DNA from: an uncultured Fibrobacterota bacterium
GTDB taxonomy: Bacteria; Fibrobacterota; Chitinivibrionia; Chitinivibrionales; FEN-1185
Reading direction: 5' to 3'
DNA length: 64,000 bases
NCBI GenBank assembly: GCA_963753345.1
Contig: CAVWBU010000021.1
Location: 64,001-128,000, forward strand
The position numbers and the translations under genes were made by a program. Shown here one piece after another: positions 2,287 through 64,000 of the stretch; position 1 is the stretch's first letter; each line of letters starts with the position of its first letter. The notes beneath the pieces are model-generated. The model was not told where the DNA came from, ran no database searches, and worked only from the letters and a program-made list of their open reading frames with translations.

Positions 2287-2433
2287 TGGGCGTTCCCCTG
2301 CTTCGCAGGGGCGGCCCTCCTTCCGGTCTCGGCCGCCGGCCTCGGGCTGCCACCGCCCTATGCCTGACGGCGGGGTCGGGGCAGCATCCCGCTATAGCGG
2401 GACCATTTTTCCAGTCCGGCCTAACGCTTGGCA
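2287..2433 (+). repeat. Structured intergenic repeat, module A only (copy a)
   Basis: TGGGCGTT-hairpin-CTCCTTCCGGTCTCGGC...CCCTATGCC...TCCAGTC...CCTAACGC, shared with 6 other copies in the window. Confidence 0.85.
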
Positions 2434-2635
2434 TAAGTCAATTTCCATTCTTATTTTCTTCCGACACCATCGGTGCCACTATGCGCAACACAGGTTCCAA
2501 TAGCGCTTGGCAGTATTAGCCGGGGTGCAAGTGGAGAGCCCCACTAGACCCTCGCGGATCCGACTATTCAGCGATCAGATATTTTCATCATTTGTTGAAA
2601 AAGTGGAGTTTTTCCTTTAGTCAATGACCTATGCT

Positions 2636-3493
2636 TCAGCCACTCTTGCGGCGCTTTTCAATCTTGAACCCGAAATCCGCTGGCGGGCCGAAATAGACGC
2701 TTGAGGTCGCGATGACCTGCGCGCCGGAGCGTGCGTACGACTCGATATTGTCAAGGGTGATGCCGCCGGTTGCGATGATAAACGTACCCCGCGAATCCGC
2801 CGCGGCTTTTTTAACAATTTTTTTGATTTCACCGGGAGCCATTTTATCACATTGGACGCCGTCAACGCCGGCTTCAACCGCGCGCTCGGCGTCCCCCATA
2901 TTGTCAACTTCAACGACAAGCTTTTTCTCCGGACATTCGGCACGCAGCCGGGGAATAGCAGCAAGCAGCCGGGAAAATCCTCCGGACAAATCGTAATGTT
3001 CCCGGAAAAACAAAACGGTCTCCGCCAGGCCGAGCCGGTGGGGCATGGCGCCTCCCGCGTACACCGCCTTGACGGACAGGTCCCGCGTTCCGGGAATTGT
3101 TTTTCTGGTTGTGGTCAGCGAGATTGACGGATTGATGCGCCGCGCGGCATCGAGCAGCATCCTTGTTCTGGTCGCAATGCCGCTGCAAAAGCCGAGAATA
3201 CTCACCGATGTTTTCCATGCCGCATGCAGTATGCCTGCAGTACCTTCTGCCGTTAGGACGACGTGCCCTTTTTTCGCCTTTGTTCCATCCGTGAGACAGC
3301 CGTGAACCGACCCGCCCAGTTTGTGAATGATTCGTGATACTTCATCGGCCCCGCAGACAATGCAATCCTGGCGGGAGATGAAAGAGGCATGGGCGGGTGC
3401 ATCCTTTATATCCAGCAGCGCGGTGGTGAGGTCCCCGAAGCGAATGTCCTCGTCGAGAAAATTGTCAATGATTGAATCGCGGATGAAATACAT
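2636..3493 (-). CDS. modD: ModD protein (NadC/QPRTase-like, molybdenum-associated)
   Basis: EDIRFGDLTT, SGIATRT, TTRKTIPG, HRLGLAETVLFF, VQCDK motifs; directly downstream of modE; a separate nadC exists at 58 kb. Confidence 0.85.
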   Translation of the reverse strand: MYFIRDSIIDNFLDEDIRFGDLTTALLDIKDAPAHASFISRQDCIVCGADEVSRIIHKLGGSVHGCLTDGTKAKKGHVVLTAEGTAGILHAAWKTSVSILGFCSGIATRTRMLLDAARRINPSISLTTTRKTIPGTRDLSVKAVYAGGAMPHRLGLAETVLFFREHYDLSGGFSRLLAAIPRLRAECPEKKLVVEVDNMGDAERAVEAGVDGVQCDKMAPGEIKKIVKKAAADSRGTFIIATGGITLDNIESYARSGAQVIATSSVYFGPPADFGFKIEKRRKSG

Positions 3494-3522
3494 ACTGCCT
3501 TCTTAACAAATGGTGACGGTTT

Positions 3523-4365
3523 TTACTCGGTTACCGCAAGAATAACCTGTGAGGCGTTGAACAACGCGCACACATCACTGCCTTTAGATAGTTTCATGTC
3601 TTCCGCGCTTTGTTTTGTTATGGTGGCGACGACGGTCTTGCCGCCGCTCAGCTTTATTTTTATCTCATCGTTCACCGCGCCCGTGACGATGCCGGATACT
3701 TTACCGCTCAGGCGGTTCATGGCGCTCGTTTTGGTTTTTTCATCATCAACCATGAGGATCACTGCCGGTGCCTTGATAAGCGCCATCGCTTTCCCGCCCT
3801 TCAGGAGATTAAGCTCCCTGGCGCTTTCATTGGTGATCACCGCGGTTATGGTGTCCTTCTCGCTGATGCGTAAAACGACTTCGGCCGACACCGGACCGTG
3901 AATGACTTTTTCAATGATGCCGGAGAACTGATTGCGCGCGCTGGTCTTCAAGATAAGGCTCCTAGTAAAATCGGTGAAAAAAGCAAAATCATTTTCTTTC
4001 CCGGACAAGGTTTTTGTGAAAACTTCGAATTGCCCCTTGTGGTGATCATACTCATCGAGGATCCTTTTGCCATAGTCGGACAGCCTGCATCCGCCGCCGT
4101 GCCTGCCACCGGTGCTGGCGACAACGAGCGGTTTCGACGAAAGGTTGTTGAGCCTGTCGATAAGGTCCCAGGCGGTCTTGTAGCTGATGCCGGTTTCCTT
4201 GGCCGCCGACGTTATTGATCCGAGTTTGTCAATGCTCTTAATGAGTTCGAGCGCGTTTTTTTCGAGCAGGTGGCGCCCGCCGAACAGGAGCCAGAGGGGG
4301 CCGGAATAGGGGGAATGGTCTGCCATGCTTTTAAACCTTTTGAAGAATCCAAATGTCCTTTTCAA
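3523..4365 (-). CDS. modE: Molybdate-responsive regulator ModE (HTH + two TOBE/mop domains)
   Basis: GSITSAAKETGISYKTAW HTH, TGGRHGGG, KTSARNQFSG and TSAMNRLSG mop repeats; start may be 4327. Confidence 0.92.
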   Translation of the reverse strand: MKRTFGFFKRFKSMADHSPYSGPLWLLFGGRHLLEKNALELIKSIDKLGSITSAAKETGISYKTAWDLIDRLNNLSSKPLVVASTGGRHGGGCRLSDYGKRILDEYDHHKGQFEVFTKTLSGKENDFAFFTDFTRSLILKTSARNQFSGIIEKVIHGPVSAEVVLRISEKDTITAVITNESARELNLLKGGKAMALIKAPAVILMVDDEKTKTSAMNRLSGKVSGIVTGAVNDEIKIKLSGGKTVVATITKQSAEDMKLSKGSDVCALFNASQVILAVTE

Positions 4366-4457
4366 AGAAAATAGTCTTGTCCACGTTTCGAAACAATATC
4401 CGCAATGACAAACCGGGAAAGTTTCATAACGAAGACATGCAAAAAATGACAGACAGG

Positions 4458-5384
4458 TCAGCGGGAAATGATTTTCGAGCAGCTCTCCCTTACCGGATAG
4501 TTCAATTCCGTCAGGCTGTATCCCGCTTTGCTAAAAAAAACGTGAACATAATAGGGGTCATTTTGTGAAACTTCCTTGATTTTCCCCAGTAAATCTATTT
4601 CTCCGCCTTTCACCAGCGTTCCCGCTAATTTTGCCGCCTTGATCCTGATCACATAGCCGTTTTTCAAATCCCCGTACCCCATGCATTCGATGATGAATTC
4701 CTTCATCTCCTTTTTCATTTTTTCACCGGGCCTATTATTTGTCAGCAGATAATTTTCGTACATGTCCAGCATGCCGTACCTGGAATCCTTCTCAAGCATG
4801 TCGACGACGGATTCTCTCCCCGGATACAGGCAGCAGAACTTGCTTTCTATGTCCTTGAGCCGTCTTAAAGAAAAAGAAGCTAGTTCCTCGTTCATTGGTA
4901 TCATTTTAAGCATGTCCGGGTAACCGCGAAGGTAGAGGAAGGACCTTGCCATTGTCCGCCTCGCCATCTTGCTGTCCGTTTTCCCAAGTATGTGGAAAAG
5001 GGGAATGTAAATCCTTATATCGTCCTCGTTCTCTTCCGACCCTTCCGGGTTGTACCATCCCAGCAATCTCGAATCAATTATGTCGGCCGCGCTTCCGACC
5101 ACTTTTTGGTCACCGGATAATTTGTCAAATATGAATTGCGATTTTCCGTCGTCCTTCTTCAGCCCTTCAAGCGTTTTCAACAGTATGATGCATCCGGCAT
5201 CCTGCACCAAAGGATCTTCCGAAAGCAGGTCCTTTTTGACGGTTTCGATAATCGTATTGGCGTCAGCATGTTTGTAGGTTTCCAGAAGCCATATCTCGTC
5301 CTGCATTTGTTGTTGGCCGCTTAATACGTTTTGCAGGAACATAACAATAAAGAATAAAATTGAGCGCATAATATTTTTTGACAT
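4458..5384 (-). CDS. Hypothetical exported protein
   Basis: 308 aa ORF with N-terminal signal peptide; AT-rich; no recognised domain. Confidence 0.6.
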   Translation of the reverse strand: MSKNIMRSILFFIVMFLQNVLSGQQQMQDEIWLLETYKHADANTIIETVKKDLLSEDPLVQDAGCIILLKTLEGLKKDDGKSQFIFDKLSGDQKVVGSAADIIDSRLLGWYNPEGSEENEDDIRIYIPLFHILGKTDSKMARRTMARSFLYLRGYPDMLKMIPMNEELASFSLRRLKDIESKFCCLYPGRESVVDMLEKDSRYGMLDMYENYLLTNNRPGEKMKKEMKEFIIECMGYGDLKNGYVIRIKAAKLAGTLVKGGEIDLLGKIKEVSQNDPYYVHVFFSKAGYSLTELNYPVRESCSKIISR

Positions 5385-5637
5385 GCAATAGCCTCTTTGA
5401 TAAGTTTTATCCTAAACTTCGAGGTTCATAGTATATTAAAGCATGAGATGGATTAATCAATTTGGGGCAAAGAAAAATTCGCGAAATAAGAATAGGTGGA
5501 TTTGTGAAAACAGGAAGATTTCCCCTTATTTTTTGTTGCGCACTTTCTACGGATTTTTTGTTTTCAATCTGGATTCCGGCATTTGCTGAAAGTAATTCCC
5601 GATCGAAGAATCTGTATATAATAATCCTAAACAGCAC

Positions 5638-6320
5638 ACCAAGGAGAAGCTGGCTTCTGAATTAAGGAATATACATGATAGGTTTCAAACAGCTTTTGTT
5701 CACCTATCGCATAATTTTGAAGAGGTGGCACAGGTGGCGGACAGGGTCGCCCTTATGAAAACAGGTTCTGTTGAACAAATAGGCACCGTGAATGAAATAC
5801 TCAAGCATCCTGTCAGCAGGTATGCGGCTGAATTTACAAGGACAAAAAATATTTTTGAAGGGACATCTGATTTACTTGAAAATGGTCGAACAGCCATTTG
5901 CCTTGGGAACGGCATTTCATTGAATCCCACGCGAGCGCATTCCTCGAAGCTTGCTTCGGGGTTAGCGAGCGACTACAAAAATGTCTTATTCCATAGGGAT
6001 GGAAAGATTCCCCGCAGCTTGCTGCGGGCTCTTTCAATTCTTGCGTTGAATATACAGGCAAGGTTTTGGTCACCATTAGGCCCGAAGCAATATGCGTAAG
6101 CGACAAGCCCTATACGATGTCCGAAAACATGTTCAGGGGAAGAGTTTTGAAAACATGGAACATGGGAATCTTCACAAGGATAGATATTGACATCGGCATT
6201 GTGGTTTCCGCGTATATGCCAAATCATCCATGTAACGGAAATTTTGGAAAGAATGATGATATTGTTTATATACACATACCACCCGAATCGATAAATATGA
6301 TTAAATGCAGTCAGGGATGA
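5638..6320 (+). pseudogene. 5'-truncated, MITE-disrupted oxyanion ABC ATPase (WtpC/ModC-like, C-terminal TOBE)
   Basis: Reads TKEKLASELRNIHDRFQTAFVHLSHNFEEVAQVADRVALM (H-loop onward) with in-frame stops upstream and no Walker A/B; continues after the MITE in another frame as SCVEYTGKVLVTIRPEAI...SENMFRGRV. Confidence 0.8.
5919..6038 (+). mobile_element. ~120 bp MITE, copy 1
   Basis: ATTGAA...TTCAAT ends; internal hairpins CGAAGCTTGCTTCG and CCCGCAGCTTGCTGCGGG; near-identical to 23591-23711 and 25057-25177 but 1 nt shorter. Confidence 0.85.
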
Positions 6321-6411
6321 TTATTTTGTTTTTTGCGAATGCTTGAAAATAACTCTGCCGGAAATTATGTTTGGTCGCTATGCAAAGAAATTCCGCCTGC
6401 CGTTTTCAATC

Positions 6412-6675
6412 ATGCTGACCGAGCACGACGATCTTTCGCGACGATGCCCGATGCTGGGTCATGAAGTGCCTTTTTCATACTGCCGGCAGCCCGGTCAGGA
6501 AAATCCGTGCAGTAGGATGTTCGACTGCTGGTGGGAAGCGATTGACATCCGGACCTTCGTCGCGGATAACTACAGTGGAGATGTTCAGAACGCCATGATT
6601 CAGCCGCCCAAACCGAAAACGCTTTCAATTCTCGAACTCATCGAACAGGCGCGCAGAAGAAATTCGGAGCGCTAA
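6412..6675 (+). CDS. Small Cys-rich hypothetical protein
   Basis: RRCPMLGHEVPFSYCR...PCSRMFDCWWE pattern; start MLTEH at 6412. Confidence 0.65.
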   Translation: MLTEHDDLSRRCPMLGHEVPFSYCRQPGQENPCSRMFDCWWEAIDIRTFVADNYSGDVQNAMIQPPKPKTLSILELIEQARRRNSER

Positions 6676-6948
6676 GCGGTTTCGCGCGCATAGGCAACAA
6701 AATGTCGATGCCTTGTCGTGATCGCTTAATGGTACCCGTTGTGCTGGCATGCCTTGCTTGCATCAAGGACGGTAACGTTCTTTGCTTCATATTGTTTGAT
6801 CGCATGTCCCCCGCATCACTGAAGAATACTGCCGACCAAGCCTACGGAGGCAAGCCGGAATTTGCCAACAAGGTGATTACAATTATTGGAATTCATACAG
6901 CCGGAACATAATTTGATATTAGCATATGCCAGAAACTCAGGGAGCCCC

Positions 6949-7398
6949 ATGCCACGACCGTGCAAGGCAAGAAGAGTAATCTGCAACCCGCAGGCCAGCA
7001 GCTTTGGCCCGAGTGGGATTGCCAAACGGGAACTTGAATCGGTAACACTATCTCTGGACGAGTTTGAAGCAATACGCCTTGCAGATCATGAGAGGCTGTA
7101 CCAGGTGCAGGCGGCAAAGAAGATGAACGTTTCCCGCCAGACCTTCGGGAACATCGTTGCATCGGCGCACAGGAAAGTGGCGGACTTCCTCATCAATTCC
7201 AAGCGATTGTCCGTGGAGGGCGGGATTGTTGAAGTCGGAACATGCCGGTTCATCTGCGCAGCGTGCGGCCACGCGTGGTCGGTTGCGCGCGGCACGGGGA
7301 GACCGGACCGATGTCCGCAGTGTAAGGGAAAGGAGTTCTGTTGTGAGAAGAAAATCGGTAAAGGGAAAAATATTCAAACCTGCTGGAGGAGCCAATGA
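6949..7398 (+). CDS. DUF134 (UPF0251) HTH protein with C-terminal zinc ribbon
   Basis: MPRPCKARRV, DEFEAIRLAD, AAKKMNVSRQTF, CAACGHAW...CPQC. Confidence 0.9.
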   Translation: MPRPCKARRVICNPQASSFGPSGIAKRELESVTLSLDEFEAIRLADHERLYQVQAAKKMNVSRQTFGNIVASAHRKVADFLINSKRLSVEGGIVEVGTCRFICAACGHAWSVARGTGRPDRCPQCKGKEFCCEKKIGKGKNIQTCWRSQ

Positions 7399-7760
7399 AA
7401 ATCTGCATGCCGGTACTTGAGGACAAAGGGATGGAATCTGTCGTTTACGGTCATTTCGGCAGCGCGCCCTGCTTCGCACTGTACAATTCGGAAACGGGAA
7501 GCGTGATGTTTTCCACAAACAAGGAAAGCGAGCACGAGCATGGGAGCTGCATGCCTGTGAGCGCACTGAAAATCCTGGGTGCCGAAGCCGTGGTGTGCAG
7601 GGGCATGGGATTTAGGGCCGCGAACCATCTTGTGGCAGCCGGAATAAAGCCGTTTCTTGTAGAGGCGGAGACTGTTGCTCAAGCGATCGCCAAGTACGAC
7701 AGCGGGGACGTCAGGGTGCTTGACGAGAGCACCGCGTGCCATGTACATGACTGCCATTGA
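7395..7760 (+). CDS. NifB/NifX-family (FeMo-cofactor-binding-like) protein
   Basis: VYGHFGSAPCF, HEHGSC, CRGMGFRA motifs; overlaps DUF134 stop (ATGA). Confidence 0.88.
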   Translation: MKICMPVLEDKGMESVVYGHFGSAPCFALYNSETGSVMFSTNKESEHEHGSCMPVSALKILGAEAVVCRGMGFRAANHLVAAGIKPFLVEAETVAQAIAKYDSGDVRVLDESTACHVHDCH

Positions 7761-7954
7761 CATAGACTGACAATCATTGAAAAAACGTACATTTGTGCCT
7801 CTCAGGTAAAACGACAGGGGAGGGGGAATGCGGTATTTACAAGATAAAACAGGGCCGCGGCTGAGGGAAAAAAACCGCACGAGCGGAGCGAAAAACCGAT
7901 ATTATGAACGGGCTATTTCTTGAAAGTTCTATCAACCTAAACGAGGGGGCGATC

Positions 7955-8962: not shown

Positions 8963-8998
8963 GCGTCTGATATCTTGAAATCTACCTTTTGTTAATTG

Positions 8999-9032
8999 GA
9001 GCCCGGATGACTCATTCGGGCTCTGTTATTTT
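8999..9032 (+). terminator. Rho-independent terminator
   Basis: GAGCCCGGATGA-C-TCATTCGGGCTC hairpin followed by T-rich tail, downstream of the 7955 gene. Confidence 0.6.
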
Positions 9033-9242
9033 CCTTCAATAGCAGCTATTTGCCAATAGATTTAAAAACTGCTTCACGATGATTGAGCAGAATCTCCGCC
9101 CGCCGGTCTTCGCAACTGATCTCTTGGCAAGTTGTACGGGGTTAGCATAATTCCGGCAGTAGGTGCTTATACCATATATACTGCTTTCAAGGTGGTCAAA
9201 TAGCGGATAAGGCAAAAGGGCGTTAGAACCCCAGAGCCGGGT

Positions 9243-9656: not shown

Positions 9657-9697
9657 AACAGCCTCGCTGTCAAATGCTGGTTTGTCCGCGGTCCTTG

Positions 9698-10773: not shown

Positions 10774-10806
10774 GAAAATCCTCCCGAATAGTATTTGTAT
10801 TACAGT

Positions 10807-10989: not shown

Positions 10990-11006
10990 GCTTTGCCTCC
11001 CTGCAA

Positions 11007-11267: not shown

Positions 11268-11272
11268 TGCCA

Positions 11273-21810: not shown

Positions 21811-22794
21811 CAGTTCCTTCATTACATCGCCTTTTGCATACGGGGTAGGAATGTTGAAGAGAGTTCCCACGGTTCGACAGATATCGATAAGGGTTCTTTC
21901 TTTATTGGAAACGAAATTCTTCTTGATCCCAGGCCCGATTGCCAGGAGAAAAAGTTCCGTGCACCCCCGGCACTTGTCCCCATAGCCGTGGTAATCGTCG
22001 GTGTGCCTTCCGTGGACGCTCATTACCAGAAAAACCGTCTTGTCCTTATAGACGTCCACTTTCTGAATCCGGTCCCAGAGATCCCAGGTAATCTGATCCA
22101 TAAGGATTATCGACTCGTAGTAGGCATTCAGGCCAGCGGCACCGCCGCATGCATCCTTCTGACCCTTCAATGGGCATTCGGCAGCAAGTTCCTTCTCCGG
22201 TGTGAGCGTGCCGCCCCCGCCATTAAGGCTGAGATACACGAAAGCAGGGTGTTTTTCCATGATATGGGGCAGCGCCTTCTCATAGATCGCGTTTTCGTTT
22301 TCATCCTCCTTCTTGCTGGACTCAAATACCGGCGCATACTTTGCCCCGAACTCGGCGTGATCACTGCAGGTTAGAATTTCGAATGTAGACTTGCATGAGG
22401 CGAAATAACAGGGATTGCCGGGTTCCTTCTTGGCGCTGTTCCAGTATTCAAACAGGGTCGGGAAGGCGGGACGAATGGTTTCGCTGAACGGATTTTTAAA
22501 AACATGCCACACGCCGGTAAGAAGGCTCATCTGCGCCGGAATGGGCAGGGTGAGTTCGCGATTCTCGAACTTGGTGCAGATTGTCCCCAGAGGCCGGAGT
22601 TTGTTCCAGATATTGTCGATGTACAGGTGGTTCTTGTCGCCGAACGCATCGGAGTAGCGCGCGCCGTTCATCACGATGATGAACAGATTTTTGGCCTGGG
22701 ATTTCGCCGGAATGGACTGGTCGCCGGCGTTCGACGGCATGGCCGTTACAAGGAACGTCGCAATGAAAGGGAATAGTATTTTGGAGGGGATCAT
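21802..22794 (-). CDS. Exported alkaline-phosphatase/sulfatase-superfamily protein (paralog 2)
   Basis: Signal peptide; KNLFIIVMNGARYSD, PTLFEY, YKDKT...SVHGRH, LAIGPGIK, IDICRTV. Confidence 0.65.
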   Translation of the reverse strand: MIPSKILFPFIATFLVTAMPSNAGDQSIPAKSQAKNLFIIVMNGARYSDAFGDKNHLYIDNIWNKLRPLGTICTKFENRELTLPIPAQMSLLTGVWHVFKNPFSETIRPAFPTLFEYWNSAKKEPGNPCYFASCKSTFEILTCSDHAEFGAKYAPVFESSKKEDENENAIYEKALPHIMEKHPAFVYLSLNGGGGTLTPEKELAAECPLKGQKDACGGAAGLNAYYESIILMDQITWDLWDRIQKVDVYKDKTVFLVMSVHGRHTDDYHGYGDKCRGCTELFLLAIGPGIKKNFVSNKERTLIDICRTVGTLFNIPTPYAKGDVMKELFE

Positions 22795-37799: not shown

Positions 37800-40397
37800 T
37801 CATCCCAAACTTCCGAACTTCCTCAACCAAATGCTTGGCTCCCCAGATGCCCGCGACTTGACAAGATCCACTTCAAACTCCAGCACCCAATCGTTGGTTC
37901 CCTCCGGATCAACCAGCATTTGTTGCACCCGCCAGATCCCTTTTTCCGGAAGGGGCGCTACATAGGTGTGGCGGATGTTCCGCGCGTCCGGGTCGAGGCA
38001 AATGGCGTGGTGGTCCGAAAGATAAGTTTCTAGAGTCTGTTGAAGCTTTGCAGGTGTCCAGGAAGGATCGGCAGTTATTGAGTTATCATAATCAGCAATG
38101 ACGCCTTCTTCCGTAATGGAGGATGGATTGACCCGATTTATAATTTCGACCGCCGCCTCAAAATCTCTTTTGATGACCGCGGAAATAAAGGTGAAGATTT
38201 TGGCTCTTATCAGTGAAGTGAATTTCTTAGCGTCCCGGGTGATGTCCTGTTCCGCGGCATCGGCGCCGGGAGGCCGGACTTCTCGCAGTATCGGCCGCCA
38301 GGTAGGATGGATCGCGCATCTTCTCCCATTCGTCAAGCAGGCTGGAGTCCACCTGCCTTATCATGGTGCCGAGATACACTTCCATTTCATCGACGACGTC
38401 GTTCTTGGCGGCGCTGGGCACCGTTTGCACAAGGACCTTGTAGACCCCGTTGACGTGGCGCAAAAGCAATCCTTCAACGCGCTCGAGATCGTACGAACGG
38501 ACATAATCGGCAAACGAGCTGTAGGTCTCGAACATTTCCCTCACGATCGATTTGGGCCGGATGTTTTCCTGGCCCAACCAGGGGTGGCGGTCCGAAAAGT
38601 CGTTGAACGTGGAATACACGAAGTCGCGGTCGGGTTTGGGGTATTCCAGCTTGTCAAGCTCTTCGATGCGCTCGTCGAACGGAATGCCCTGCATTTTCAT
38701 CTCGGCCATTTTCTGCGTTTTGAGTTTGTCCAGTTGTTTGCGCAGAATGGAGTCGGGGTCCTCAAGGATGGACTCGATAAGGGTGAGGAGCCGGAACGGA
38801 TACTCGGGCGCCTGCGCGTCGAGAAGCGGCAGCGTTTCCAGAAGGTACAGCGACAGGGTCTGGTCCATGGAAAAATCGTCCTGTAATTCAAGGTTGACGC
38901 GGACCTTCGCGCCGCCAGGCGTTTGGCCGGTGAACTCGATTATGTGGCGGTTGACAAGCGATCGGAAGAGCTGCCATGCCCGCGTGACATGTGCCTCCTT
39001 TTGCTTCGCACTTTCGTGACAGCGGGCGACAAGGTCGCGCATAGCGGCGCATCCGTCGGTGTCGCGGCTCAGAACGTTGAGCAGCATGCCGTGGGAAACC
39101 TGGAAACGCGACACGAGCTGTTCGGGCTTTGCCGCCACAAGGCGGTTGAAGGTGGCAATGTCCCAGTTGACAAAGTTTCTTTCCGGCGGTTTGCGCTTGA
39201 CGAATTTCCTGCCGCCCTGCGACCGCTTCTCTTCGAGCGCGCGTTTTCTATGGTGTGTTCGGGCGCCTGCGCCACGACCCATCCGCAGTCGTCGAACCCT
39301 TTGCGGCCTGCGCGGCCGCATATCTGATGGAAGTCCCGCGCGCTCAAAATCGCGGTCTTCTGGCCGTCGTATTTGCAAAGGCGGGTGAGCAGCACCGTGC
39401 GGATGGGAACGTTGATGCCCACGCCGAGAGTATCGGTTCCGCAGATGATTTTGAGCAGCCCCTGCTGCGCCAACTGCTCGGCAAGCACCCGGTACTTTGG
39501 CAGCAGCCCTGCATGGTGGATTCCGATGCCCTGGCGCAGCCATCGCTTGATGTCCGGGCCATAGGGGCTGTTGAACTTGAAACCCGAAACTGCCTTGGCA
39601 AGCGCGTCTTTTTCTTCACGCGTGCAAATGTTAAGGCTCGTGAAATTCTGCGCATTCTGTGCCGCCTCGAGCTGGGTGAAATGCACCACATAGACCGGGC
39701 TCTTGCCTTCCGCGACAAGCGATTCAACCGTTGCGGACAGCAGCGTGACGGCATAAGAATATACCAGCGGGACGGGCCGGTCGCCGGATACCACGCTCAC
39801 CGTGGGGCGGGACGTGAGGCGCGTGAGCTCTTCTTCGAAAAACGACGTTTCTCCCAGCGTTGCAGACATCAGAAGGAACCGGGCCTGCGGAAGCGTGAGC
39901 AGCGGCACCTGCCAGGCCACGCCGCGTTCGCGGTCCGCGTAGTAGTGGAACTCGTCCATCACCACGTCCTGGACATTCGCCTTTTCCCCTTCGCGCAACG
40001 CTATGTTGGCGAGGATTTCCGCAGTGCAGCAAAGGATGGGCGCGTCATGGTTGACTGTTGCGTCTCCGGTGCACAGCCCCACGTTGTCGGGCCCGAACTC
40101 GCGGCACAGGGCGAGCCACTTCTCATTGACCAGCGCCTTGACCGGGCAGGTGTACACCGAACGTTTGCCCTGCCCAAGAGCCTTGAAATGCGCCGCCATT
40201 GCAACCAGTGATTTTCCCGACCCGGTGGGAGTGTTCAGAATCACATTCTTCTCTTCGAACAATTCCAGGATCGCGGATTCCTGCGCAGGATACAGGTGAA
40301 GATGCCGGTCCTCCACATAGGCGAGGAACCGCCCCAGCAATTCGTTATTGTCGGGTTTGTCGCATTTGGCAAGCTGTTCGTACAGTGTGGGGAGCAT
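37800..40397 (-). pseudogene. Ski2/HelY-like DEAD/DEAH helicase with DUF3516-like C-terminus, two frameshifts
   Basis: [39 protein letters not shown]; continues across three frames with shifts near 39237 and 38285. Confidence 0.85.
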
Positions 40398-40584
40398 TGG
40401 GGTAATTATAAACAATCAATGTTTGGATGATAAGGCGCGGTTGCTTTCACTAGGCTATTAAGATACGTCAAGAAACAGGATCGTGTGAGCGTAAGAAAAG
40501 CAATCGCTGCCGGGAAGCCATGAACCGGGGACCGCAATTTTCGCATTCATCCTGCCGTAGTAAATAGGGAGGAGGGAGGGCAAC

Positions 40585-41643: not shown

Positions 41644-41677
41644 TTCTCTCGTGTAAATTAAGAAGAAGAAGGTCTAA

Positions 41678-42153
41678 GGGGGGATGTTTCCCCCTCGCTT
41701 CGGCCTCCTCGGCCTTTGGCCTGCGGTGTCCTCCGCTACCCCCTCCTGGGTAGCCGCCTTGACAAAGCAGTTGCCAGACCACACATTGTTGTGGCGGCAC
41801 CCGAGAAGAGTAGTTGAGAAGTTGAGGAGTTGAGAAGCTAACGCGTAGACGCGTTAACACGGTTACGTACTCATATTTTGGATGCCGATTGGCGCGAGAA
41901 GAAGTACTTGACAGAATAGACTTCCTTTGCCGCGCGCCAGGCCGGAACGGAGGCCGCGTTAGAACGTGGTGCCGCCCGGACCCGCCTTTTGTAGAGACGC
42001 AGCGGCGCTGCGTCTCTACAAAAGGAATAGGGCCGTGGCGGCCCGAGGCTGGAGGCCGACGACCCTTGGAAGCACCCGAAGGGGTGGACCGGAAGGAGAA
42101 CCGACCTCGGGTAAAGCCGCAAGGCATTGCGGCTTTACCCGAGGGAACGCCCA
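41678..42153 (-). repeat. Structured intergenic repeat, full length A+B (copy b)
   Basis: TGGGCGTT...CGCGCGGCA...TTCTCGCGCCAATCGGCAT...TCAAC repeats...ACCCAGGAGGGGGTAGCG...AGCGAGGGGGAAACATCCCCC. Confidence 0.9.
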
Positions 42154-43941: not shown

Positions 43942-43988
43942 TTCTGTTGTAATAAGGCCGTTCCCCGCGTAATAGGAGACATCTAAGT

Positions 43989-44423
43989 GGGGGAAGTTTC
44001 CCCCTCGCTCCGGCCCGGCCGCGCAGCTTTACATACCGGTATTTTGGATATGCGCGGCCGGTCCTTCGCTACCCCCTCCTGGGTGCACCCCGAGAAAGTT
44101 GATTTGCGAGAAAGGTGCCTCGGTTGGGGGGCACCCGCGAAAAGCAGTTGAGAAGTTGAAATGAAGAAACGTTGAAAAGTAGGAAGAAGCCCGACCGATT
44201 TCTTGCGAATGCCGATTGGCGCAAGAAGAAGTGATTGACTGAATAGATCTCCTTTGCCGCGCGTTAGGGGCGACTGGAGGTCCCGCCATAGCGGGATGCC
44301 GCCCGGACCCGGCCCTGCGGGCCATAGGGCCGTGGTGGCCCGAGGCCAAAGGCCGAGACCGGAAGGAGAACCGCCCTCGGGAGGGGCCGCAATGCATTGC
44401 GGCCCCTCCCGAGGGAACGCCCA
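43989..44423 (-). repeat. Structured intergenic repeat, full length A+B (copy c)
   Basis: Same ordered conserved blocks as copies b, d, f. Confidence 0.9.
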
Positions 44424-46748: not shown

Positions 46749-46752
46749 GGCG

Positions 46753-51943: not shown

Positions 51944-52406
51944 TGGACGTTGCCTTCGCTGCGCTCAGGCCGGTCTCCTTCCGGGCTCGGCTGTTCGCCT
52001 CGTTGCCGGACCGCCCTATGCCTAACGGCCGGGTCGGCCGGCAATGCGCTCTAGCTCACCCTCCAGTCCACCTAACGCGCGGCATAGGAAATCTATTCAG
52101 TCAATAAACATTTCTTGCGCCAATCGGTATCCAAAACACACTTCTTACCTCCTAAACTTCTCAACCTCTCAACTACTCTTCTTGGGTGTCGCCACAGGAA
52201 GAAAGTTACAAAGTGACAAAGGGACAAAGAAAGAAAATTGCCCGGTACAACTACTCTCCAAGGGTGCCCTCACATGGGTGATTGATTCCTGCAACCAGCC
52301 TCACTTGGGGTGCACCCAGGAGGGGGTAGCGGAGGACTGGCGCGTGATTGAAAGTGAACAACAAATCAAAGGTGCGCCGGGCCGGAGCGAGGGGGAAACT
52401 TCCCCC
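51944..52406 (+). repeat. Structured intergenic repeat, full length A+B (copy d)
   Basis: TGGACGTT...CCTAACGCGCGGCA...TTCTTGCGCCAATCGG...CACCCAGGAGGGGGTAGCG...GGGGGAAACTTCCCCC. Confidence 0.9.
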
Positions 52407-52512
52407 GCCAAGTGTATCGTTATATCTATCCACCCATTTGACTCCTCCTCGATTCATACTATATTATTGAATACAAATACCACCCAGGAATTAATAAGGT
52501 AAAGGACTTTAC

Positions 52513-56918: not shown

Positions 56919-56949
56919 ACAACAAAAATATATGGGGACGTGCCGGCCG

Positions 56950-57705: not shown

Positions 57706-57783
57706 GGGTGATGCAATTCCTCCGGCATCAGGGTCGGCGCTGATTCCAACAGTTGAGGAAACTTTTTGTACGATTCGTTCTAA

Positions 57784-57817
57784 CCTCACCCCCGTCCCCT
57801 CTCCGATCGGAGAGGGG
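57784..57817. repeat. REP-like palindrome (CCTCACCCC...CCCTCTCC-GGAGAGGG type)
   Basis: CCTCACCCCCGTCCCCTCTCCGATCGGAGAGGGG, adjacent to copy e. Confidence 0.55.
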
Positions 57818-57841
57818 TGGCAGGATTGGCCAGCACTCCTC

Positions 57842-58011
57842 TGCGCCGCGTTAGGCCGGAACGGAGGCCGCGCTGGAGCGTGGTGCTGCCTGACCACGGC
57901 CCGGAGGGCCATCGTGGCAGGCAGCCCGAGGCCGAAGGCCGAGACCGGAGCGAGGGCCGACCCTTTGGTAGAAGCGAAATATATTTCGCCTCTACCAAAG
58001 GGTAACGCCCA
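57842..58011 (-). repeat. Structured intergenic repeat, module A only (copy e)
   Basis: TGGGCGTT-hairpin-TCGGCCCTCGCTCCGGTCTCGGC...CCTAACGC. Confidence 0.85.
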
Positions 58012-58027
58012 AGTCATTCTTATCTCT

Positions 58028-58888
58028 TCATTCAATTACCAGATGCATGTCAACGATCGCCGCGCTGTGGGTTATCGCGCCGACCGAAATGAAATCCACG
58101 CCTGTTTCGGCGATGGCGACAATGGTGTCTACAGTCACATTGCCACTTGCCTCAAGCTCAATCCCCGGCGCCGAAGCCCGCGCGCGTTTTACGCACGCAG
58201 CCGTGTCGGCGATGTTCATGTTGTCAAGCATTATCCTGTCGGGCGCGCAGGCGAGCGCCTCCTCGAATTCGTGCAGCGTCTGCGTTTCGGCCTCGATCTT
58301 CACGGCAAGGCCGGACTCCTTGACAAATGCCTGCGCCTTGCGCACGGCGGCCGCCACGCCGGCCGCGGCCTTCACGTGCGTGTGCTTTACAAGGATCATG
58401 TCGAACAGGCCGAAACGGTGGTTGAGGCCGCCGCCGTGGACCACAGCCTCCTTCTCGAGCGCCCGGAGAAGGGGAGTGGTCTTGCGTGTGTCAAGCAGCT
58501 TCGCCCGCGTGTGGGCGATTTCGGCTGCGAGGAGCCGCGTGGCGGTCGCCACGCCGCTCAGGTGCTGGAGAAAGTTGAGCGCAACGCGCTCGCCCGCAAG
58601 GATGGGGTGCACGGGCCCGCTCAGCGCGCAGATGCGCGAATCGGGCTCGAGCGAGGCCCCGCTTTCACACAGCATAGTGACCGATATTGATTTGTCAAGA
58701 GAATGAAAGAGTGGCTCAAGGAGCTTTATGCCCGAAAGAACGCCGCTCGCCTTGCTTTTTATCGCCGCGTTTGCGCGCGCTCCTTTGCCGAATATTGCCT
58801 GCGACGTTATGTCGCCGCGCTGCCCGAGGTCTTCGGCCAGTGCCTGGCGGATCAGGGAGTCAAGTGACGCGTCGCCTGCAAACGTCAT
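58028..58888 (-). CDS. nadC: Nicotinate-nucleotide diphosphorylase (quinolinate phosphoribosyltransferase)
   Basis: EDLGQRGDITS, ERVALNFLQHLSGVAT, DTRKTTP, NHRFGLFD, IMLDN, EASG, DFISVGAITHS. Confidence 0.95.
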   Translation of the reverse strand: MTFAGDASLDSLIRQALAEDLGQRGDITSQAIFGKGARANAAIKSKASGVLSGIKLLEPLFHSLDKSISVTMLCESGASLEPDSRICALSGPVHPILAGERVALNFLQHLSGVATATRLLAAEIAHTRAKLLDTRKTTPLLRALEKEAVVHGGGLNHRFGLFDMILVKHTHVKAAAGVAAAVRKAQAFVKESGLAVKIEAETQTLHEFEEALACAPDRIMLDNMNIADTAACVKRARASAPGIELEASGNVTVDTIVAIAETGVDFISVGAITHSAAIVDMHLVIE

Positions 58889-61017
58889 AGGAACCCGTAG
58901 CGCAGCCCGAGGTAGAATTCCACGACATTGTCGCCGGGATCGATCCTGTTGTTGGAGTTCATGTCGAGAAGATACCACGACATCCCGCCGCACAGGCCCA
59001 CACCGAAGATAATCGGGTTGGTCACGATGTCGAGGCCGGCGTGCAATCCCCACGAGGGAATCACCGCGCCGCGTGGATACAGGCCGCCGTGCGTCTCTTC
59101 CACGTACGCGGCGCCGTACCGTATGGGGCGCCACAAGCTGTCGTTTACGGAAACGGAAAGACCGAAGGACAGGTCCGGGTCGGCGTAGTTCGTGTCCAAA
59201 AGGAGCGCGCAGTTTTCGAAAATGTTCTGTTTATACATAAGGGAAAACGACAGGCCCCTCAGGGGATTCATCCCGTAGAACAGTTCGAGCTTCGTGCCGA
59301 GTCTTCTGGTGTTGAGAACCGAATTCTGGGTGACCAGCGTGTCCTGGGCGGCCGCGGTGTCGAAAAGCATTTCGCGGTTTGCCATGTACGAGGAATTGAA
59401 CTGGCCCTCAACGATCCTGCCCTGCTGTATGGTGAGGTTAAGTTTGAAGCACATGGAATTCATCCGCGCTTCCACTGTGGGGACCCGCAGGAGGAACCCG
59501 TCGGTGCGGTTGGGGACCAGTTTCTGGGCGAAGGCCATGCCGAACGCGAGTACCTGGTCGTAGGTGGATATGGCCGCGGCGTTGAAATCGACCTGATACA
59601 TGTAGGCCGCTGCGGAGGGGTCGAGCCTGACCGTGGCGGAGCCGGCGCGGGGAAGGTTAACAAAGCGGAAACCAGTCGAGTCGGCGGATTCCACATACTC
59701 CATGTTGCGGTCGAAGAAGAACCCTGCCCCGAGATGGAACATTTCCGGCTCGAACGACAGGTAGGCGCCGCCCGGCGAAGGCGCGGCGACGTCGCCGAGG
59801 AATGCCTTGAGGCCGAAGTCGCCGAGCTGGCCCTGGGCAATAAGCCCCAGCGGGTGGAATATCGAATACGGGTTGCAGTTGTTGTATCCGTCAACCAACA
59901 GGCCGTCGCCGAGCGTGTAGTTCCGCACCGGGCCGAATTTGACAAAATTGGAATCGGAAAAAGGGCCGATGGTGATGTGATCGACAAGGTCGAGGTATCC
60001 CGAAAGGGATTTTGTATCGTAGAAAAACGGCCGGCCGGTGTAGTTCGCCGCAATGGGGAGCCTGAGCCCTGCGCCGAACATGCCGCTCGAATACGAAGGA
60101 ATAAAGGAATACGATTGAAACAACCGGCCGCCGGCCATGGCAAGATCATTTGTTTCCTGCACGACAATCTTCCGTTCCGTCGAAACGTCCGGCGGCAGAA
60201 AGGGCGCGAAACTGAGTTCTTCTTTGTCGCGGTCGGTCATGATGGACGCCCAGAGCCTGTTCTCGCTGAATTCCCGTTTGTATCCCATGCCGCCGGCGCC
60301 GCCGTACTGCTGCGGAGCACCGGCCGTCGCAGGCCCGACGCCGGCTTCCTCCTCTGCAGGCCTCACGCCGGCGGCGCCGAGCTCGCGGTCTATGCGGTCG
60401 TCGCCGAAGATCTGCTTGAGTTCGACGATCTCCCGCACCGTGACGGCATAGGGGGCCAAGGGCTCCCTTCCGGGGAAAATCGAGGTGGTCTGTCCGGACG
60501 CAAGCGTGGTTTCCTCTTTCTGGGAAATGTTTCTGGTTTTCATCGATCCGGCCAGCGACTTGAACCCGGTTTCCCCGGTCTTTGGATCAACGACCGCGGA
60601 AAATGATCCGCCCTGCGTTTCCCCCACCGCGTCCGACGTGAACACGCTGACGCGGCAGTTGGAAACCGCTTTCACAAAACAGCCGCCGCCGAAAAGGGTA
60701 AGGTTCACTTCGGAGAGCACGGCGCCGTTGTCGGATTTCCGGTCGCGGACATTGAACAGCACCTTGGAATTTGGTCCGAGCACCACCGCGTTGCCCGAGC
60801 CGAACTGCACCACGAGCCTGGTCTGGAAATAGGTTTCAACCATGTCGTTGTCGCGCAGGCGGGAATCGACCGTCAGCTTTTCCCATTTCTTCTTCGAGAC
60901 ATGCTGGACTTTTGCGCTTCCGTCAAGCGAAACGACGTTGAACTCAGGCTGCGTAAACGCGGGGGCCGCGGCGCACAGGAGTGCAAGGATTGCGAGCGAT
61001 GCCGGGAGCGGTTTCAT
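58885..61017 (-). CDS. Exported FecR-domain protein with beta-barrel-like C-terminal region
   Basis: Signal peptide; FecR-like N-terminus (LDGSAKVQ...W...D.VET...LGPNSKV); C-terminal FYLGLRYGFL. Confidence 0.6.
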   Translation of the reverse strand: MKPLPASLAILALLCAAAPAFTQPEFNVVSLDGSAKVQHVSKKKWEKLTVDSRLRDNDMVETYFQTRLVVQFGSGNAVVLGPNSKVLFNVRDRKSDNGAVLSEVNLTLFGGGCFVKAVSNCRVSVFTSDAVGETQGGSFSAVVDPKTGETGFKSLAGSMKTRNISQKEETTLASGQTTSIFPGREPLAPYAVTVREIVELKQIFGDDRIDRELGAAGVRPAEEEAGVGPATAGAPQQYGGAGGMGYKREFSENRLWASIMTDRDKEELSFAPFLPPDVSTERKIVVQETNDLAMAGGRLFQSYSFIPSYSSGMFGAGLRLPIAANYTGRPFFYDTKSLSGYLDLVDHITIGPFSDSNFVKFGPVRNYTLGDGLLVDGYNNCNPYSIFHPLGLIAQGQLGDFGLKAFLGDVAAPSPGGAYLSFEPEMFHLGAGFFFDRNMEYVESADSTGFRFVNLPRAGSATVRLDPSAAAYMYQVDFNAAAISTYDQVLAFGMAFAQKLVPNRTDGFLLRVPTVEARMNSMCFKLNLTIQQGRIVEGQFNSSYMANREMLFDTAAAQDTLVTQNSVLNTRRLGTKLELFYGMNPLRGLSFSLMYKQNIFENCALLLDTNYADPDLSFGLSVSVNDSLWRPIRYGAAYVEETHGGLYPRGAVIPSWGLHAGLDIVTNPIIFGVGLCGGMSWYLLDMNSNNRIDPGDNVVEFYLGLRYGFL

Positions 61018-61107
61018 CTAAGGGTAAAATAATATCCACAAACGGGCAAGTGTCACCAATACGGCGGCGTGGCGGAATCGTTTGACCGGCAAGAATAGAA
61101 TAGGATT

Positions 61108-61560
61108 TGGGCGTTTCCCCGGCTATGTAGAGGCGTAGCGCGCTACTCCTCTACATAGCCGGGGTCGGTCTCCTTCCGGGCTCGGCTATCCGCCTCGTTG
61201 CCGGACCGCCCTATGCCTAGAGACGCAGCACCGCTGCGTCTCTACCGGCCGGGGTCGGCCGGCAATTCGCTCTGGCTCACCCTCCAGTCCACCTAACGCG
61301 CGGCAACCGTTATTATCATCAGTCAACTACTTATTCTTGCGCCAATCGGAATGCTCAAAATATCATGTAGTGTCTTTCCAGTCACTTCTCAACTTCTAAA
61401 CCTTTCAACTACTCTCCGTGGGTGCCGCCACAACAATGCATGGTCTTGCAACTACTTTGTCAAGGCGGTCACCCAGGAGGGGGTAGCGAAGGACCGGCGC
61501 GGAAAAAGATGAACTCTGAAAATATGAGTGCCGGGCCGGAGCGAGGGGGAAACTTCCCCC
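61108..61560 (+). repeat. Structured intergenic repeat, full length A+B (copy f)
   Basis: Same conserved blocks; two nested (G)TAG...CTAC hairpins. Confidence 0.9.
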
Positions 61561-61581
61561 GCAAAAAAGAATTTCTCTTCT

Positions 61582-62922
61582 CTATATTACTTCATCCCCT
61601 TTTTTTATCACCCATAATCCGCCCACCTTCTCATGGAACTTGTCAAGCGGCAGCTTGGTCTTGAGCACGCAGTTGAAGAAGTTGTACTTTGCAAGGTCGA
61701 AATCGATGATGTCCTTTTTGAGGTCGCTAAAGAGCTGCGTGCCAGGCATGGGCGTGAGGATGGTGTACCCCGCATAGGTGACCCGTTGCAAGGACGCGTA
61801 GTCGGCAAGCGCGTCGAAATCTTCGTCGGTGTAATCGGGTGGCACAACGTAGTTGCCCCGCACCGATATGCCGTTGTCGTGAAACACCGAAATCGCCTGT
61901 TTGATGAGCGTGGCGTCGAGCCGCTTGTTGTATAAAGCAAGCTCGCTCTGGCGGAACGATTCGAAGCCGCAGATCACCACCTTGAGCCCAGCCCTGGCCA
62001 TCTGTGCTATCAATTTCGGATTCTTTGCCGCCGTGTCCGCCCGAATGTCCATCACGAATTCCTTGTCGAGCCGTTCCTCTTCGATGCGCGAGAAGAGCCG
62101 CGCCGAATACTCCTCCTCGATCACCGAATTCGCGTCTGCAAAGCGCACGATGCCGTACTCGGAAAGCGTACGCAATTCGGCGACAACGCTTTCGATGTCG
62201 CGCAGGTAGTATTTGCCGTCCCACTGCGGCCATATTGAGCAGAACGAGCATTTGAACGGGCACCCGAGCGACGTGTTGACGTAGGTGATGTTCTTGTCGT
62301 TGTGCGGCAGGCGGTAGGCAGTGATCCACCTGCGGATAAAGGATCGGTCGGGCAAAATGTATCCGTCTTTGCCGTAATCCTTTGCAAGCGGCGCGGGCGC
62401 GGAGCACGTAAACCCGTCCGGTGAGTTTGTAAAAATTCCGGCCACGTTCCGGTAGTCGCCGCCCGCAGCCTTTGCGCTCACGATCTCGCGGAACGCGTGC
62501 GCGGCCTGGCCCACGGCAACGATGTCGGCCGCGGTCCCTTTAAAATCTTCGGGACACAGCGAGGCATGGAGGCCGCCCGCAACCGTAAGGACGCCAGCCT
62601 TCCATTGCTTTACCGACGCGAGTATCCGCGTACAGGCGGGGAATTCCGACGCGATGCAGGTGATGCCCACGATGTCGGGCCGCAGGTCTTCGCAGTACTT
62701 TCTGACAAGCTCCTCGGGCGACGGCGCCTGGGGGTTCAGGTCGTATTCGGCCTTCATGTCGAGCACGGTAACGTTATGGCCGCGCACCGCAGATGCCACG
62801 GTGAGCAGCCCCAGCGGCGGGCCCACGAGTTTCTTGTGAACGAACGGTTTCGCCGCTTCGGGCGCGTGCGCAAGGATCGCGTTTTCGGGGGAGCGGGGCG
62901 GATTGACAAGAAGGATGTTCAT
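61582..62922 (-). CDS. Cobalamin-binding radical SAM protein
   Basis: ILLVNPP, PPLGLL, VAGGLHAS, GCPFKCSFC, LTPMPGT. Confidence 0.92.
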   Translation of the reverse strand: MNILLVNPPRSPENAILAHAPEAAKPFVHKKLVGPPLGLLTVASAVRGHNVTVLDMKAEYDLNPQAPSPEELVRKYCEDLRPDIVGITCIASEFPACTRILASVKQWKAGVLTVAGGLHASLCPEDFKGTAADIVAVGQAAHAFREIVSAKAAGGDYRNVAGIFTNSPDGFTCSAPAPLAKDYGKDGYILPDRSFIRRWITAYRLPHNDKNITYVNTSLGCPFKCSFCSIWPQWDGKYYLRDIESVVAELRTLSEYGIVRFADANSVIEEEYSARLFSRIEEERLDKEFVMDIRADTAAKNPKLIAQMARAGLKVVICGFESFRQSELALYNKRLDATLIKQAISVFHDNGISVRGNYVVPPDYTDEDFDALADYASLQRVTYAGYTILTPMPGTQLFSDLKKDIIDFDLAKYNFFNCVLKTKLPLDKFHEKVGGLWVIKKGDEVI

Positions 62923-63326
62923 GCCGCGCCCAGGAGGTAGACCACGGCCGTGACATGGCCTTGCACGGGCCTCAGGATTTTTGCGACAGGCACGGCGCCC
63001 CGCAGGTCCAGGGCCAGGCGGCGCGAGACGGCAAGCGAGCCTGACGCCCGGCCGCGGCCGGGAAGGAATTCGCAGTCGGTGAAGTTATACGGCCGGCCAA
63101 TCGCCTTGTACAATGCTTCTTTGACGCAGAACGCGGCGCAGAGCCCTGCCGCCGGGTCGGAAAGCCGCCTGCAGCGGCTGCGTTCCTTTCTTGTAAACAC
63201 GAACGGCATAAAGGCCGAGCCGTCCCTGCTCCATCGCCGGAACCGGCCGACGCGCTCCGCATCGATGCCGCAGGAAACAAGGCGGCAGCAGGAGCTAAAC
63301 GTCCACGTTGACGATGTCGTCGCCAT
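62919..63326 (-). CDS. acpS: Holo-ACP synthase (AcpS-type phosphopantetheinyl transferase); start uncertain
   Basis: CGIDAERV, VFTRKE, FCVKEALYKAIG. Confidence 0.8.
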   Translation of the reverse strand: MATTSSTWTFSSCCRLVSCGIDAERVGRFRRWSRDGSAFMPFVFTRKERSRCRRLSDPAAGLCAAFCVKEALYKAIGRPYNFTDCEFLPGRGRASGSLAVSRRLALDLRGAVPVAKILRPVQGHVTAVVYLLGAA

Positions 63327-63603
63327 ATCGCACGATTTTGAGGGTGAGGTCCACCACCTGGCCGATGGTGCTCGCGGGCTTTTTCATGAGGTGTTTGCCG
63401 AGGGTCTTGAGCTCTATCTTGAGGCCGTACTTCTTGCGCACGATTTCCAGCAGGGATAAAAGCATGAGCGAATCGCCCTCCAGCTCCTCGATGATGTTGG
63501 TGGCGTCGGTGAGCTTCGACGAATCGATGTCGCATTCATCGGCGAAAAAGCCGTACACGAGCGTGCGGATGTCGGATTCCTGCTGTGCGGTCAGGTCGGG
63601 CAT
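63295..63603 (-). CDS. Acyl carrier protein
   Basis: ELEGDSLMLL phosphopantetheine attachment motif, acidic, 102 aa. Confidence 0.88.
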   Translation of the reverse strand: MPDLTAQQESDIRTLVYGFFADECDIDSSKLTDATNIIEELEGDSLMLLSLLEIVRKKYGLKIELKTLGKHLMKKPASTIGQVVDLTLKIVRYGDDIVNVDV

Positions 63604-63707
63604 GTATAAAGGGCTCCTGGTCTTGATGGGTTAGGTAAAATACTATGTAGTAATATGAGATAAGTCGTGATTATTGGTGGGGGAGGTGGAGCCAATAAAA
63701 AAAGAGA

Positions 63708-64000
63708 TGGGCGTTCCCCTCCCCCTCGACAAGCTCGGGGTCGGGTCGGCCCTCCCTCCGGTCTCGGCCTTCGGCCTCGGGCCGCCTCGGCCCTATGGCC
63801 CACAGGGCCGGGTCCGGGCGGCACCGCGCTCCAGCGCGGCCTCCAGTCCTGCCTAACGCGCGGCAACGATGTTCTTATCAGTCAATTACCTATTCTCGCG
63901 CCAATCGGCATCTGCAACAAATTAGTAAGGGCTTCATCTTTGCATTTTCTACTCTTCAACGTTTCAACTATTCAACTTTTCAACGCTCTTTCTTCTCAAC
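63708..64000 (+). repeat. Structured intergenic repeat (copy g), cut by window end
   Basis: Module A, linker TTCTCGCGCCAATCGGCAT and TCAAC repeats present; module B would lie beyond 64000. Confidence 0.88.

Follow-up and report, generated by a model that had tools for sequence, protein, structure and literature searches.

A covarying intergenic repeat of an uncultured Fibrobacterota bacterium, probably not an RNA, with likely kinship to Flavo-1

The window analysed here is a stretch of 64,000 nucleotides (nt) from an uncultured Fibrobacterota bacterium (Chitinivibrionales; FEN-1185), namely positions 64,001-128,000 of contig CAVWBU010000021.1 in assembly GCA_963753345.1. The host genome (G000) spans 4.5 Mb and is 94% complete with 4.8% contamination. 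The window holds seven copies, a to g, of a structured intergenic element that we call module A, all at the positions and strands given in an original prediction made from the sequence of the window. That prediction overlooked a partner, module D, which lies inside the window for four of the seven copies and just beyond its end for a fifth. Module letters (A, D, E, F) and helix names (P0-P5) were coined in this analysis; strands in the following list are the folding strands, which carry the GNA loops.

2287..2427, minus strand (GNA folding strand): module A copy a; no D partner was found for it
41676..41807, minus strand (its GNA strand): module D partner of copy b, with a hairpin with a ~30-nt loop, a GNA/GNA helix and a candidate purine triplex
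41808..41933, no strand: spacer of copy b, with box B (GTCAA ~21 nt from A, on the strand of the original prediction) and TCAAC-rich short repeats
41934..42153, plus strand: module A copy b, with a nested GTAG double-foot palindrome (~41991-42019) and a 27-nt mini-insert (~42060-42086)
43986..44141, minus strand: module D partner of copy c
44142..44260, no strand: spacer of copy c, with box B and TCAAC repeats
44261..44423, plus strand: module A copy c, with a long palindromic P1 tip
51944..52078, minus strand: module A copy d; ~35 nt outside it lies a remnant of an older F-type end
52079..52256, no strand: spacer of copy d, with box B, TCAAC repeats and a broken D start
52257..52409, plus strand: module D partner of copy d
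57784..57817, minus strand: BoxC/PIT-like triplex motif beside copy e, replacing D (coordinates hand-counted)
57848..58011, plus strand: module A copy e, whose P1 tip holds a GTAG double-foot palindrome (~57968-57995)
61108..61299, minus strand: module A copy f, whose P1 and P3 tips each hold a palindrome, the one in P1 being of the GTAG type (~61127-61154)
61300..61414, no strand: spacer of copy f, with box B and TCAAC repeats
61415..61563, plus strand: module D partner of copy f
63708..63859, minus strand: module A copy g; ~30 nt outside it lies a remnant of an older D end
63860..64000, no strand: spacer of copy g, whose module D starts 24 nt beyond the window end

The seven copies measure 135-220 nt, close to the ~145-220 nt first estimated. 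The conserved blocks described for them are kept but are not invariant (CTCCTTCCGG and CCCTATG each in 5/7 copies, CCTAACGC in 6/7, with copy b ending in CCTGGCGC), and the stems between the blocks are interchangeable as described. No transposase or reverse transcriptase (RT) family was found among the 51 open reading frames (ORFs) scanned of the 171 listed for the window, in agreement with the earlier observation.

A profile built from the seven copies gave 405 matches at 399 loci in the genome, so that the proposed repeat family is real; a refined profile gave 402 matches. Both ends are present at 339 of the 399 loci, with 325 distinct sequences, and the family makes up about 2% of the genome's DNA. 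A 3.2-kb stretch duplicated at 99.9% identity (contig C54 and C32:48989-52172) is probably assembly redundancy, by which a few repeat copies are counted twice. With genes called by a simple script, only five of the 339 two-ended copies overlap an ORF and the others are intergenic, and where a gene ends at the outer end of A its stop codon lies at a median of 25 nt. The neighbours are ordinary genes of ordinary GC content, in both orientations.

Module D, 120-150 nt long, occurs at 281 loci and lies about 120 nt from A. Among the 339 copies of A, 168 have a D and 49 an inverted A, both within 330 nt, and 24 have a module of another repeat type, leaving 98 without a partner. Within 250 nt of A, D was found on the wrong strand in no case and on the expected one in 185; 150 of these 185 close A-D spacers measure 80-159 nt, and 38 of 54 close A-A spacers measure 120-139 nt. 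Since A and D fold on opposite strands, each module reads outward on its own folding strand, and gene ends cluster 250-350 nt beyond A because the second module follows there. The element is a non-coding, non-autonomous chromosomal repeat in which A usually has, about 120 nt away, a back-to-back neighbour folding on the other strand, namely D, an inverted A or, less often, a module of another type.

Database records matching the module A pattern are labelled Fibrobacterota or Chitinivibrionales. By BLAST, A is present in four of five same-genus genomes; by covariance model, with 27 candidates scored per genome, it is present in 17 of 121 genomes of the phylum. The same-genus genome G003, 99% complete, contains neither A nor D. 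The patterns of both modules gave no match in viral contigs or plasmids and two weak partial matches in phages. Among 41 genomes of the order, 20 contain module D, of which often just the triplex core is present. The two modules are therefore distinct families, paired with each other in this genus.

The fold of module A comprises several helices and is maintained on a single, defined strand. In an alignment of 62 distinct sequences, pairing is kept in 90% of the cells, and double changes are seen at 43 of the 46 pairs; none of 500 shuffles reached the observed level, and slid controls dropped to 35-45%. This alignment was fitted to the model, a procedure that itself favours structure. Independently of the model, the proposed pairing of the 5' and 3' ends into a closing stem covaries, being TT/AA in 225 and CC/GG in 95 of the 339 two-ended copies. 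Pair changes are double in 403 cells and single in 30 (summed from the table), and each of the three inner hairpins covaries. In 196 parsed copies, with one unreliably parsed P3 arm ignored, the arms of the closing stem are linked across about 130 nt with a normalised mutual information (NMI) of 0.80, and two other long-range pairs reach 0.68 and 0.73, whereas the closing stem and the inner P3 give 0.02-0.03, the shuffled level. Because far arms are linked while the inner P3 is not, linkage in A tracks pairing rather than distance. Covariation, linkage and closing-stem changes agree with the earlier suggestion of selection on a single-stranded fold.

The copies do not follow the history of the sites at which they lie. 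In 21 orthologous comparisons (one site repeated), where the flanking matches had a median identity of 88.8%, the A cores were 0.72 identical, compared to 0.71 for random copies and 0.94 for the best non-orthologous copy. As orthologous copies of A are no more alike than random ones, A is swapped in place for other variants, at a much higher rate than that at which its surroundings diverge. A positional signal was seen for the spacer and also for D, the latter with median ranks of 0.26 and 0.11 in 12 pairs, and was absent for A (0.48 and 0.67, 16 pairs). At one site D and inverted A stand in for one another, and some sites are filled by different repeat types. In 38 of the 339 copies, A lies just inside the truncated end of an older module; where that older end is itself an A, its closing-stem type differs from that of the resident in 18 of 20 cases, as would be expected if replacement by the same type leaves no scar. 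The junctions with these remnants carry short A-rich linkers. Layer-by-layer retention was not seen at the orthologous sites, where the outer P1 is scrambled as well.

The reading we favour, and hold to be fairly probable, is that module A belongs to the Flavo-1 superfamily and works as folded single-stranded DNA (ssDNA), paired with a triplex-like module and subject to replacement in place. The strand of A would be exposed at the replication fork or during transcription, a strand-specific ssDNA enzyme acting in trans would recognise the fold and nick it, and a donor module with a short outer flank would then take the place of the resident module, by joining or by copying. Only correctly folded copies would act as donors, and in this way hundreds of variants would stay paired.

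The same pattern could also arise if A were a host-functional ssDNA site, serving for protein binding, priming or as a barrier to transcription or replication, with every copy selected individually and the reshuffling left to ordinary RecA-type gene conversion instead of a dedicated enzyme. Such a site would account for a DNA-type fold, for the lack of a linked enzyme and for the position between ordinary genes; GNA mini-hairpins are described at priming sites and at the N4 promoter in the available text of PMC13037366, and the 119 module combinations among the 196 parsed copies fit recombination. We nevertheless consider this unlikely. Random conversion would unlink the closing-stem arms, which stay linked across a P3 that is not linked to them, the A-rich linkers at remnant junctions resemble non-homologous joins, and G003 does without both modules.

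Which strand folds, and as which molecule, was assessed from the loops. The fold of the original prediction is real, but the folding strand is the reverse complement of the one it read, where the loops are pyrimidine-rich. On the folding strand of A, C(GNA)G triloops number 492 (17 on the other strand) and UUCG is absent. Of 254 parsed copies, 251 have GA/GA as a 2x2 internal loop; P4 contains either tandem GA/GA (60) or Watson-Crick GC/GC (44); and a 3x3 loop, parsed with its letters left free, has GNA on each side in 235 of 298 copies. The middle letter depends on context, internal loops being mostly GGA and hairpin loops mostly GAA. In the sections available of the papers concerned, GNA mini-hairpins are a described DNA motif, the cited RNA hairpin counterpart being much less stable (PMC13037366), and GGA facing GGA forms a DNA guanine zipper, the duplex being preferred when N is G and the hairpin otherwise (PMC11014236). 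The triloops and the GA/GA and GNA/GNA loops are known ssDNA motifs, and together with the absence of UUCG they speak for DNA.

Module D shows the same signature, with 69 C(GNA)G triloops on its folding strand and none on the other, and with GNA/GNA in its 3x3 loop in 116 of 119 parsed main-type copies (loop letters again left free). In addition, an upstream purine tract mirrors the terminal hairpin and co-varies with it: of 206 copies, 185 + 15 are concordant, three discordant and three other. This mirror covariation is consistent with a purine-motif triplex, of a kind that does not form in RNA according to the part of PMC4666352 available. D resembles the BoxC/PIT intrastrand triplex repeats in combining a putative purine third strand, a purine strand and a pyrimidine strand with mirror symmetry (200/206 concordant), and BoxC/PIT sites, like those of the present element, vary between genomes (PMC4666352, same excerpt). 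It differs from them in that its third strand comes first and is joined through a long GNA/GNA helix, in its length of 120-150 nt and in its usual company with A.

Comparison with Flavo-1 (RF01705), an Rfam family catalogued as RNA, extends these observations, and the likeness noted in the original prediction, with a longer and different core, looks like true kinship. In the portion of the published alignment available (PMC2864571, supplement 5 part 49), Flavo-1 starts and ends like the folding strand of A, sharing its 5' end and strand (GCGT-T/G-AGG ... CCGACC). All seven rows with flanks that were read (supplement 4 part 327) run on from CCGACC into a variable hairpin and ACGCCC, which could pair with the 5' end and so close the element as in A. 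This extension lies outside the Rfam model and is present in 66 of 80 metagenome matches, which were collected by a pattern resembling the 3' end of A; five of these were confirmed against RF01705, two of them above threshold, and 20 other Flavo-1-like metagenome matches gave no gathering-level match to Flavo-1. Among 79 distinct Flavo-1-like elements, the irregular long helix has GNA/GNA in 57 of 78, C(GNA)G occurs 33 times versus 2 on the other strand, and UUCG is missing from that strand. Both families are multi-copy and intergenic. Flavo-1 has one inner variable hairpin, in contrast to A, which has a four-way inner junction, spans 135-220 nt, is paired with D and occurs in Fibrobacterota.

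By score, A falls outside Flavo-1. RF01705 (threshold 42 bits) matched neither the window nor the 150 genome candidates searched of 456, while the positive control gave 59.2 and 51.6 bits; nor did any other Rfam family in this covariance-model search, which agrees with the candidate new family of the original prediction. An Rfam scan of the window likewise gave no gathering-level match, and relaxed thresholds over 22.5 kb gave hairpin-level noise only. Over their full length, the two Flavo-1 loci above threshold are matched by the covariance model of A, with about 20 bits (E ~0.008), and shorter intermediates between Flavo-1 and A occur in other families of the order (L131, L178, L180). On this sequence evidence, module A is likely a homologue of Flavo-1 rather than a member of it, and "Flavo-1 RNA" may itself be a DNA element. 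Among the papers mentioning Flavo-1, as far as their text was available, none treats it as DNA (subscription papers and bioRxiv supplements were outside the search). The REPs (repetitive extragenic palindromes) of RAYT subclass 2.6 were considered as a possible identity of Flavo-1 and rejected, since Flavo-1 was not seen among 19 subclass-2.6 rows of the supplementary table. Two intergenic Flavo-1 copies above threshold were seen on a complete viral contig (L362, record G131); among its ORFs read by eye, no transposase was evident.

The original prediction favoured an RNA, possibly one spreading through RNA, and a structured non-coding RNA or untranslated-region element (a stabiliser, terminator or ribozyme) dispersed as a repeat, in effect the same proposal transferred to the opposite strand, has to be weighed. 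The covariation is as strong as in RNAs, A is followed by a T-rich tail, where the adjoining genes run in tandem the folding strand is sense in 105 cases versus 60, and Flavo-1 is among the transcribed regions in the available part of a Leptospira preprint (10.1101/2023.03.29.534852). Against these stand the triloops, the missing UUCG, the few one-sided pair changes and the purine-triplex pattern. Both orientations relative to genes are common and no RT was found: PF00078 matched in two of five genomes, and not in G000 (94% complete) or G005. Flavo-1-like elements do not retain the tail (A 0.39, T 0.35, n=67), and in a Flavobacterium transcriptome Flavo-1 matches fall indistinctly in sense, antisense or outside transcribed regions (PMC9723704, available text). 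RNA identity of module A is therefore disfavoured; the seven elements are probably not RNA, and we regard an RNA reading of the repeat as distinctly improbable.

For the favoured ssDNA element, an analogy lies with the repetitive extragenic palindromic (REP) sequences, REPINs and BIMEs moved by TnpA-REP (RAYT). In the sections available, TnpA-REP is described as cleaving a single strand on either side of its hairpin and as able to join the ends (PMC8266576), and for REP doublets a role as replicative units has been proposed (PMC3116915). By this analogy such chemistry would fit the spread of A, and an HUH/Y1 transposase of this kind would be the most likely class of enzyme, although this step is somewhat doubtful. 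Like A, these repeats have hundreds of intergenic copies, inverted doublets with preferred spacing, mosaic partners, one active strand, no target duplication and RAYT genes in the host genome. Unlike them, A and D are branched and of much greater size, have as a rule a module of another kind as partner, rarely flank RAYT genes and lack the GTAG guide, which neither consensus sequence contains and which is confined to nested palindromes. A genome scan found 24 GTAG double-foot palindromes, all of them in A, so the tips of A take up REP DNA; the true REPs of this genome sit there.

The Pfam Y1_Tnp model had no match in G000, a false negative according to a later tblastn search that recovered four RAYT/TnpA-REP-like loci (C35:162288-162764, C27 ~259560-260450, C32 ~21860-22640 and the start of C48). 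Two of the four are full open frames with in-frame REP insertions, a mark of RAYT subclass 2.4 in the excerpt available of PMC6006769, and the genes score below the NCBIfam cut-off (50 vs 80 bits). A copy of A lies about 120 nt after the C32 gene, and an E-type module interrupts a RAYT gene in genome G002 (L197 ~1900-2500). Across genomes, RAYTs do not track A or D. No neighbouring gene family is enriched in G000, among 52 of the 69 ORFs beside distant members or at 80 metagenome loci. Long A-D or A-A spacers hold unrelated genes and no shared enzyme, and no autonomous copy was found among them. Tyrosine recombinases, IS91-like genes and four-helix-bundle genes were tried and showed no consistent link to either module. 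A miniature inverted-repeat element of a DDE transposon was rejected as well: 143 A-D pairs match the shuffled control for target-site duplication, and the ends share only TGGG/CCCA. An IHF-like site in the spacer (11/339 vs 5.4 shuffled) was rejected, and no fixed cleavage word was found outside the module ends.

We also considered a wider proposal, that large natural DNA folds (multi-way junctions, guanine zippers and purine triplexes) form a bacterial class, some members of which are filed as RNAs (Flavo-1, perhaps Acido-Lenti-1), and overwrite resident copies in place by an undescribed, non-RAYT ssDNA reaction in which the folded DNA might itself be catalyst or protein aptamer. This we think not very likely. 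Acido-Lenti-1 (RF01687) gave no match to A or D themselves and weak matches of 23-28.5 bits (gathering 37) just 5' of A-like modules in genome G022, at the position of the partner. Sub-threshold Acido-Lenti-1-like matches lie just 5' of A-like modules at L145:1628-1681 and L180:1349-1381, and by eye similar palindromes flank the Y1 gene in L008, so that Acido-Lenti-1 may be a REP-type DNA element.

A number of results weigh against the favoured account. The element has no enzyme linked to it. Of 41 genomes, 26 hold RAYT relatives, among them G003, where A and D are both missing; in G022 and G001, two carriers of A, this query found none. A lies beside two of 34 Y1 loci and D beside none. No precise empty site was resolved in 17 fully viewed junction alignments at the present divergence, and unpaired A and D show no replication-strand bias. 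On the side of the molecule, GNRA tetraloops number 47 on the folding strand versus 4 on the other, and the tail after A on that strand is 57% T, with TTTT within 12 nt in 113 of 339 copies. Energy models do not separate DNA from RNA, and ssDNA and RNA motifs are called hard to distinguish computationally in the available part of PMC5737381. The copies of A are kin, so that the loop counts are not independent events, and the D triplex variant with 15 copies is perhaps a single lineage.

An unusual integron attC-like site, or an IS91/ISCR end, is highly improbable. A shares with attC a structure-selected, strand-specific ssDNA and the core-like word GTTAGG, an integrase is followed by D and A at one locus, and the genome has an IS91-like gene. 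The order of GTT and AAC in attC is the reverse of that in module A, the core is not invariant in A (CC/GG in 95/339), and the fold of A is branched. Four integron-integrase loci of relatives lack A and D, with ordinary attC-like sites by eye at two of them; no co-oriented cassette arrays were found near an integrase for A, A stands among ordinary genes of either orientation and normal GC, and no module lies within ~5 kb of the IS91-like gene. The integrase locus in question (L046, G000 C18:29885-33487; TIGR02249, 454 bits) is directly followed by D and A. Elsewhere in the genome, attC-like repeats number about 20-25 copies, and an IS91-like Y2 transposase gene stands next to an attC-like site (L150, G000 C26:285280-286656), unrelated to A or D.

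Least probable of all is that the in-place swapping reflects misassembly of repeats in metagenome bins, as the duplicated stretches and the 4.8% contamination might suggest: of 80 copies sampled, not one has 100 exact bases in common with any copy that differs from it, so that ordinary reads span the copies, the paired arms stay matched, D and the spacer remain orthologous at those sites, and the repeat and its fold would be left unexplained.

The observation behind the original prediction is confirmed and its interpretation partly supported. If the favoured reading holds, one genome would offer hundreds of covarying examples of natural folded DNA, where natural ssDNAs more complex than a hairpin are called rare (PMC5737381, available part). 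It would give a testable new reading, with extended boundaries, of Flavo-1, an abundant Rfam family without known function, and it suggests criteria for telling DNA from RNA among orphan motifs, namely GNA triloops, GNA/GNA loops, mirror covariation and few wobble pairs. Replacement of repeats in place at fixed sites would be a directly testable mode of spread.

Several further observations were made on the repeats and the window. Structured repeat families E and F, together with about 120 BoxC/PIT-like matches, occupy the same intergenic sites (e.g. on G000 C15, C16, C26, C31 and C32), and family F has the triplex core of module D. A 27-nt mini-insert has 83 matches in the genome, at several positions in A (60) and in the last hairpin of D (13), with its GAA loop always on the folding strand of the host module. 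In one D subtype (e.g. window 61425-61460) the opposite strand of the loop resembles, by eye, a sigma-70 promoter (TTGACA, 17 nt, TRCATT) directed towards A. Among the genes of the window, two overlapping frames at 38227-40415 on the minus strand encode a DEAD-box helicase domain and DUF3516, reflecting a frameshift, a broken gene or an assembly error. Two quinolinate phosphoribosyltransferase-family genes are present, both on the minus strand, at 2636-3493, adjoining a TOBE-domain regulator, and at 58028-59134.

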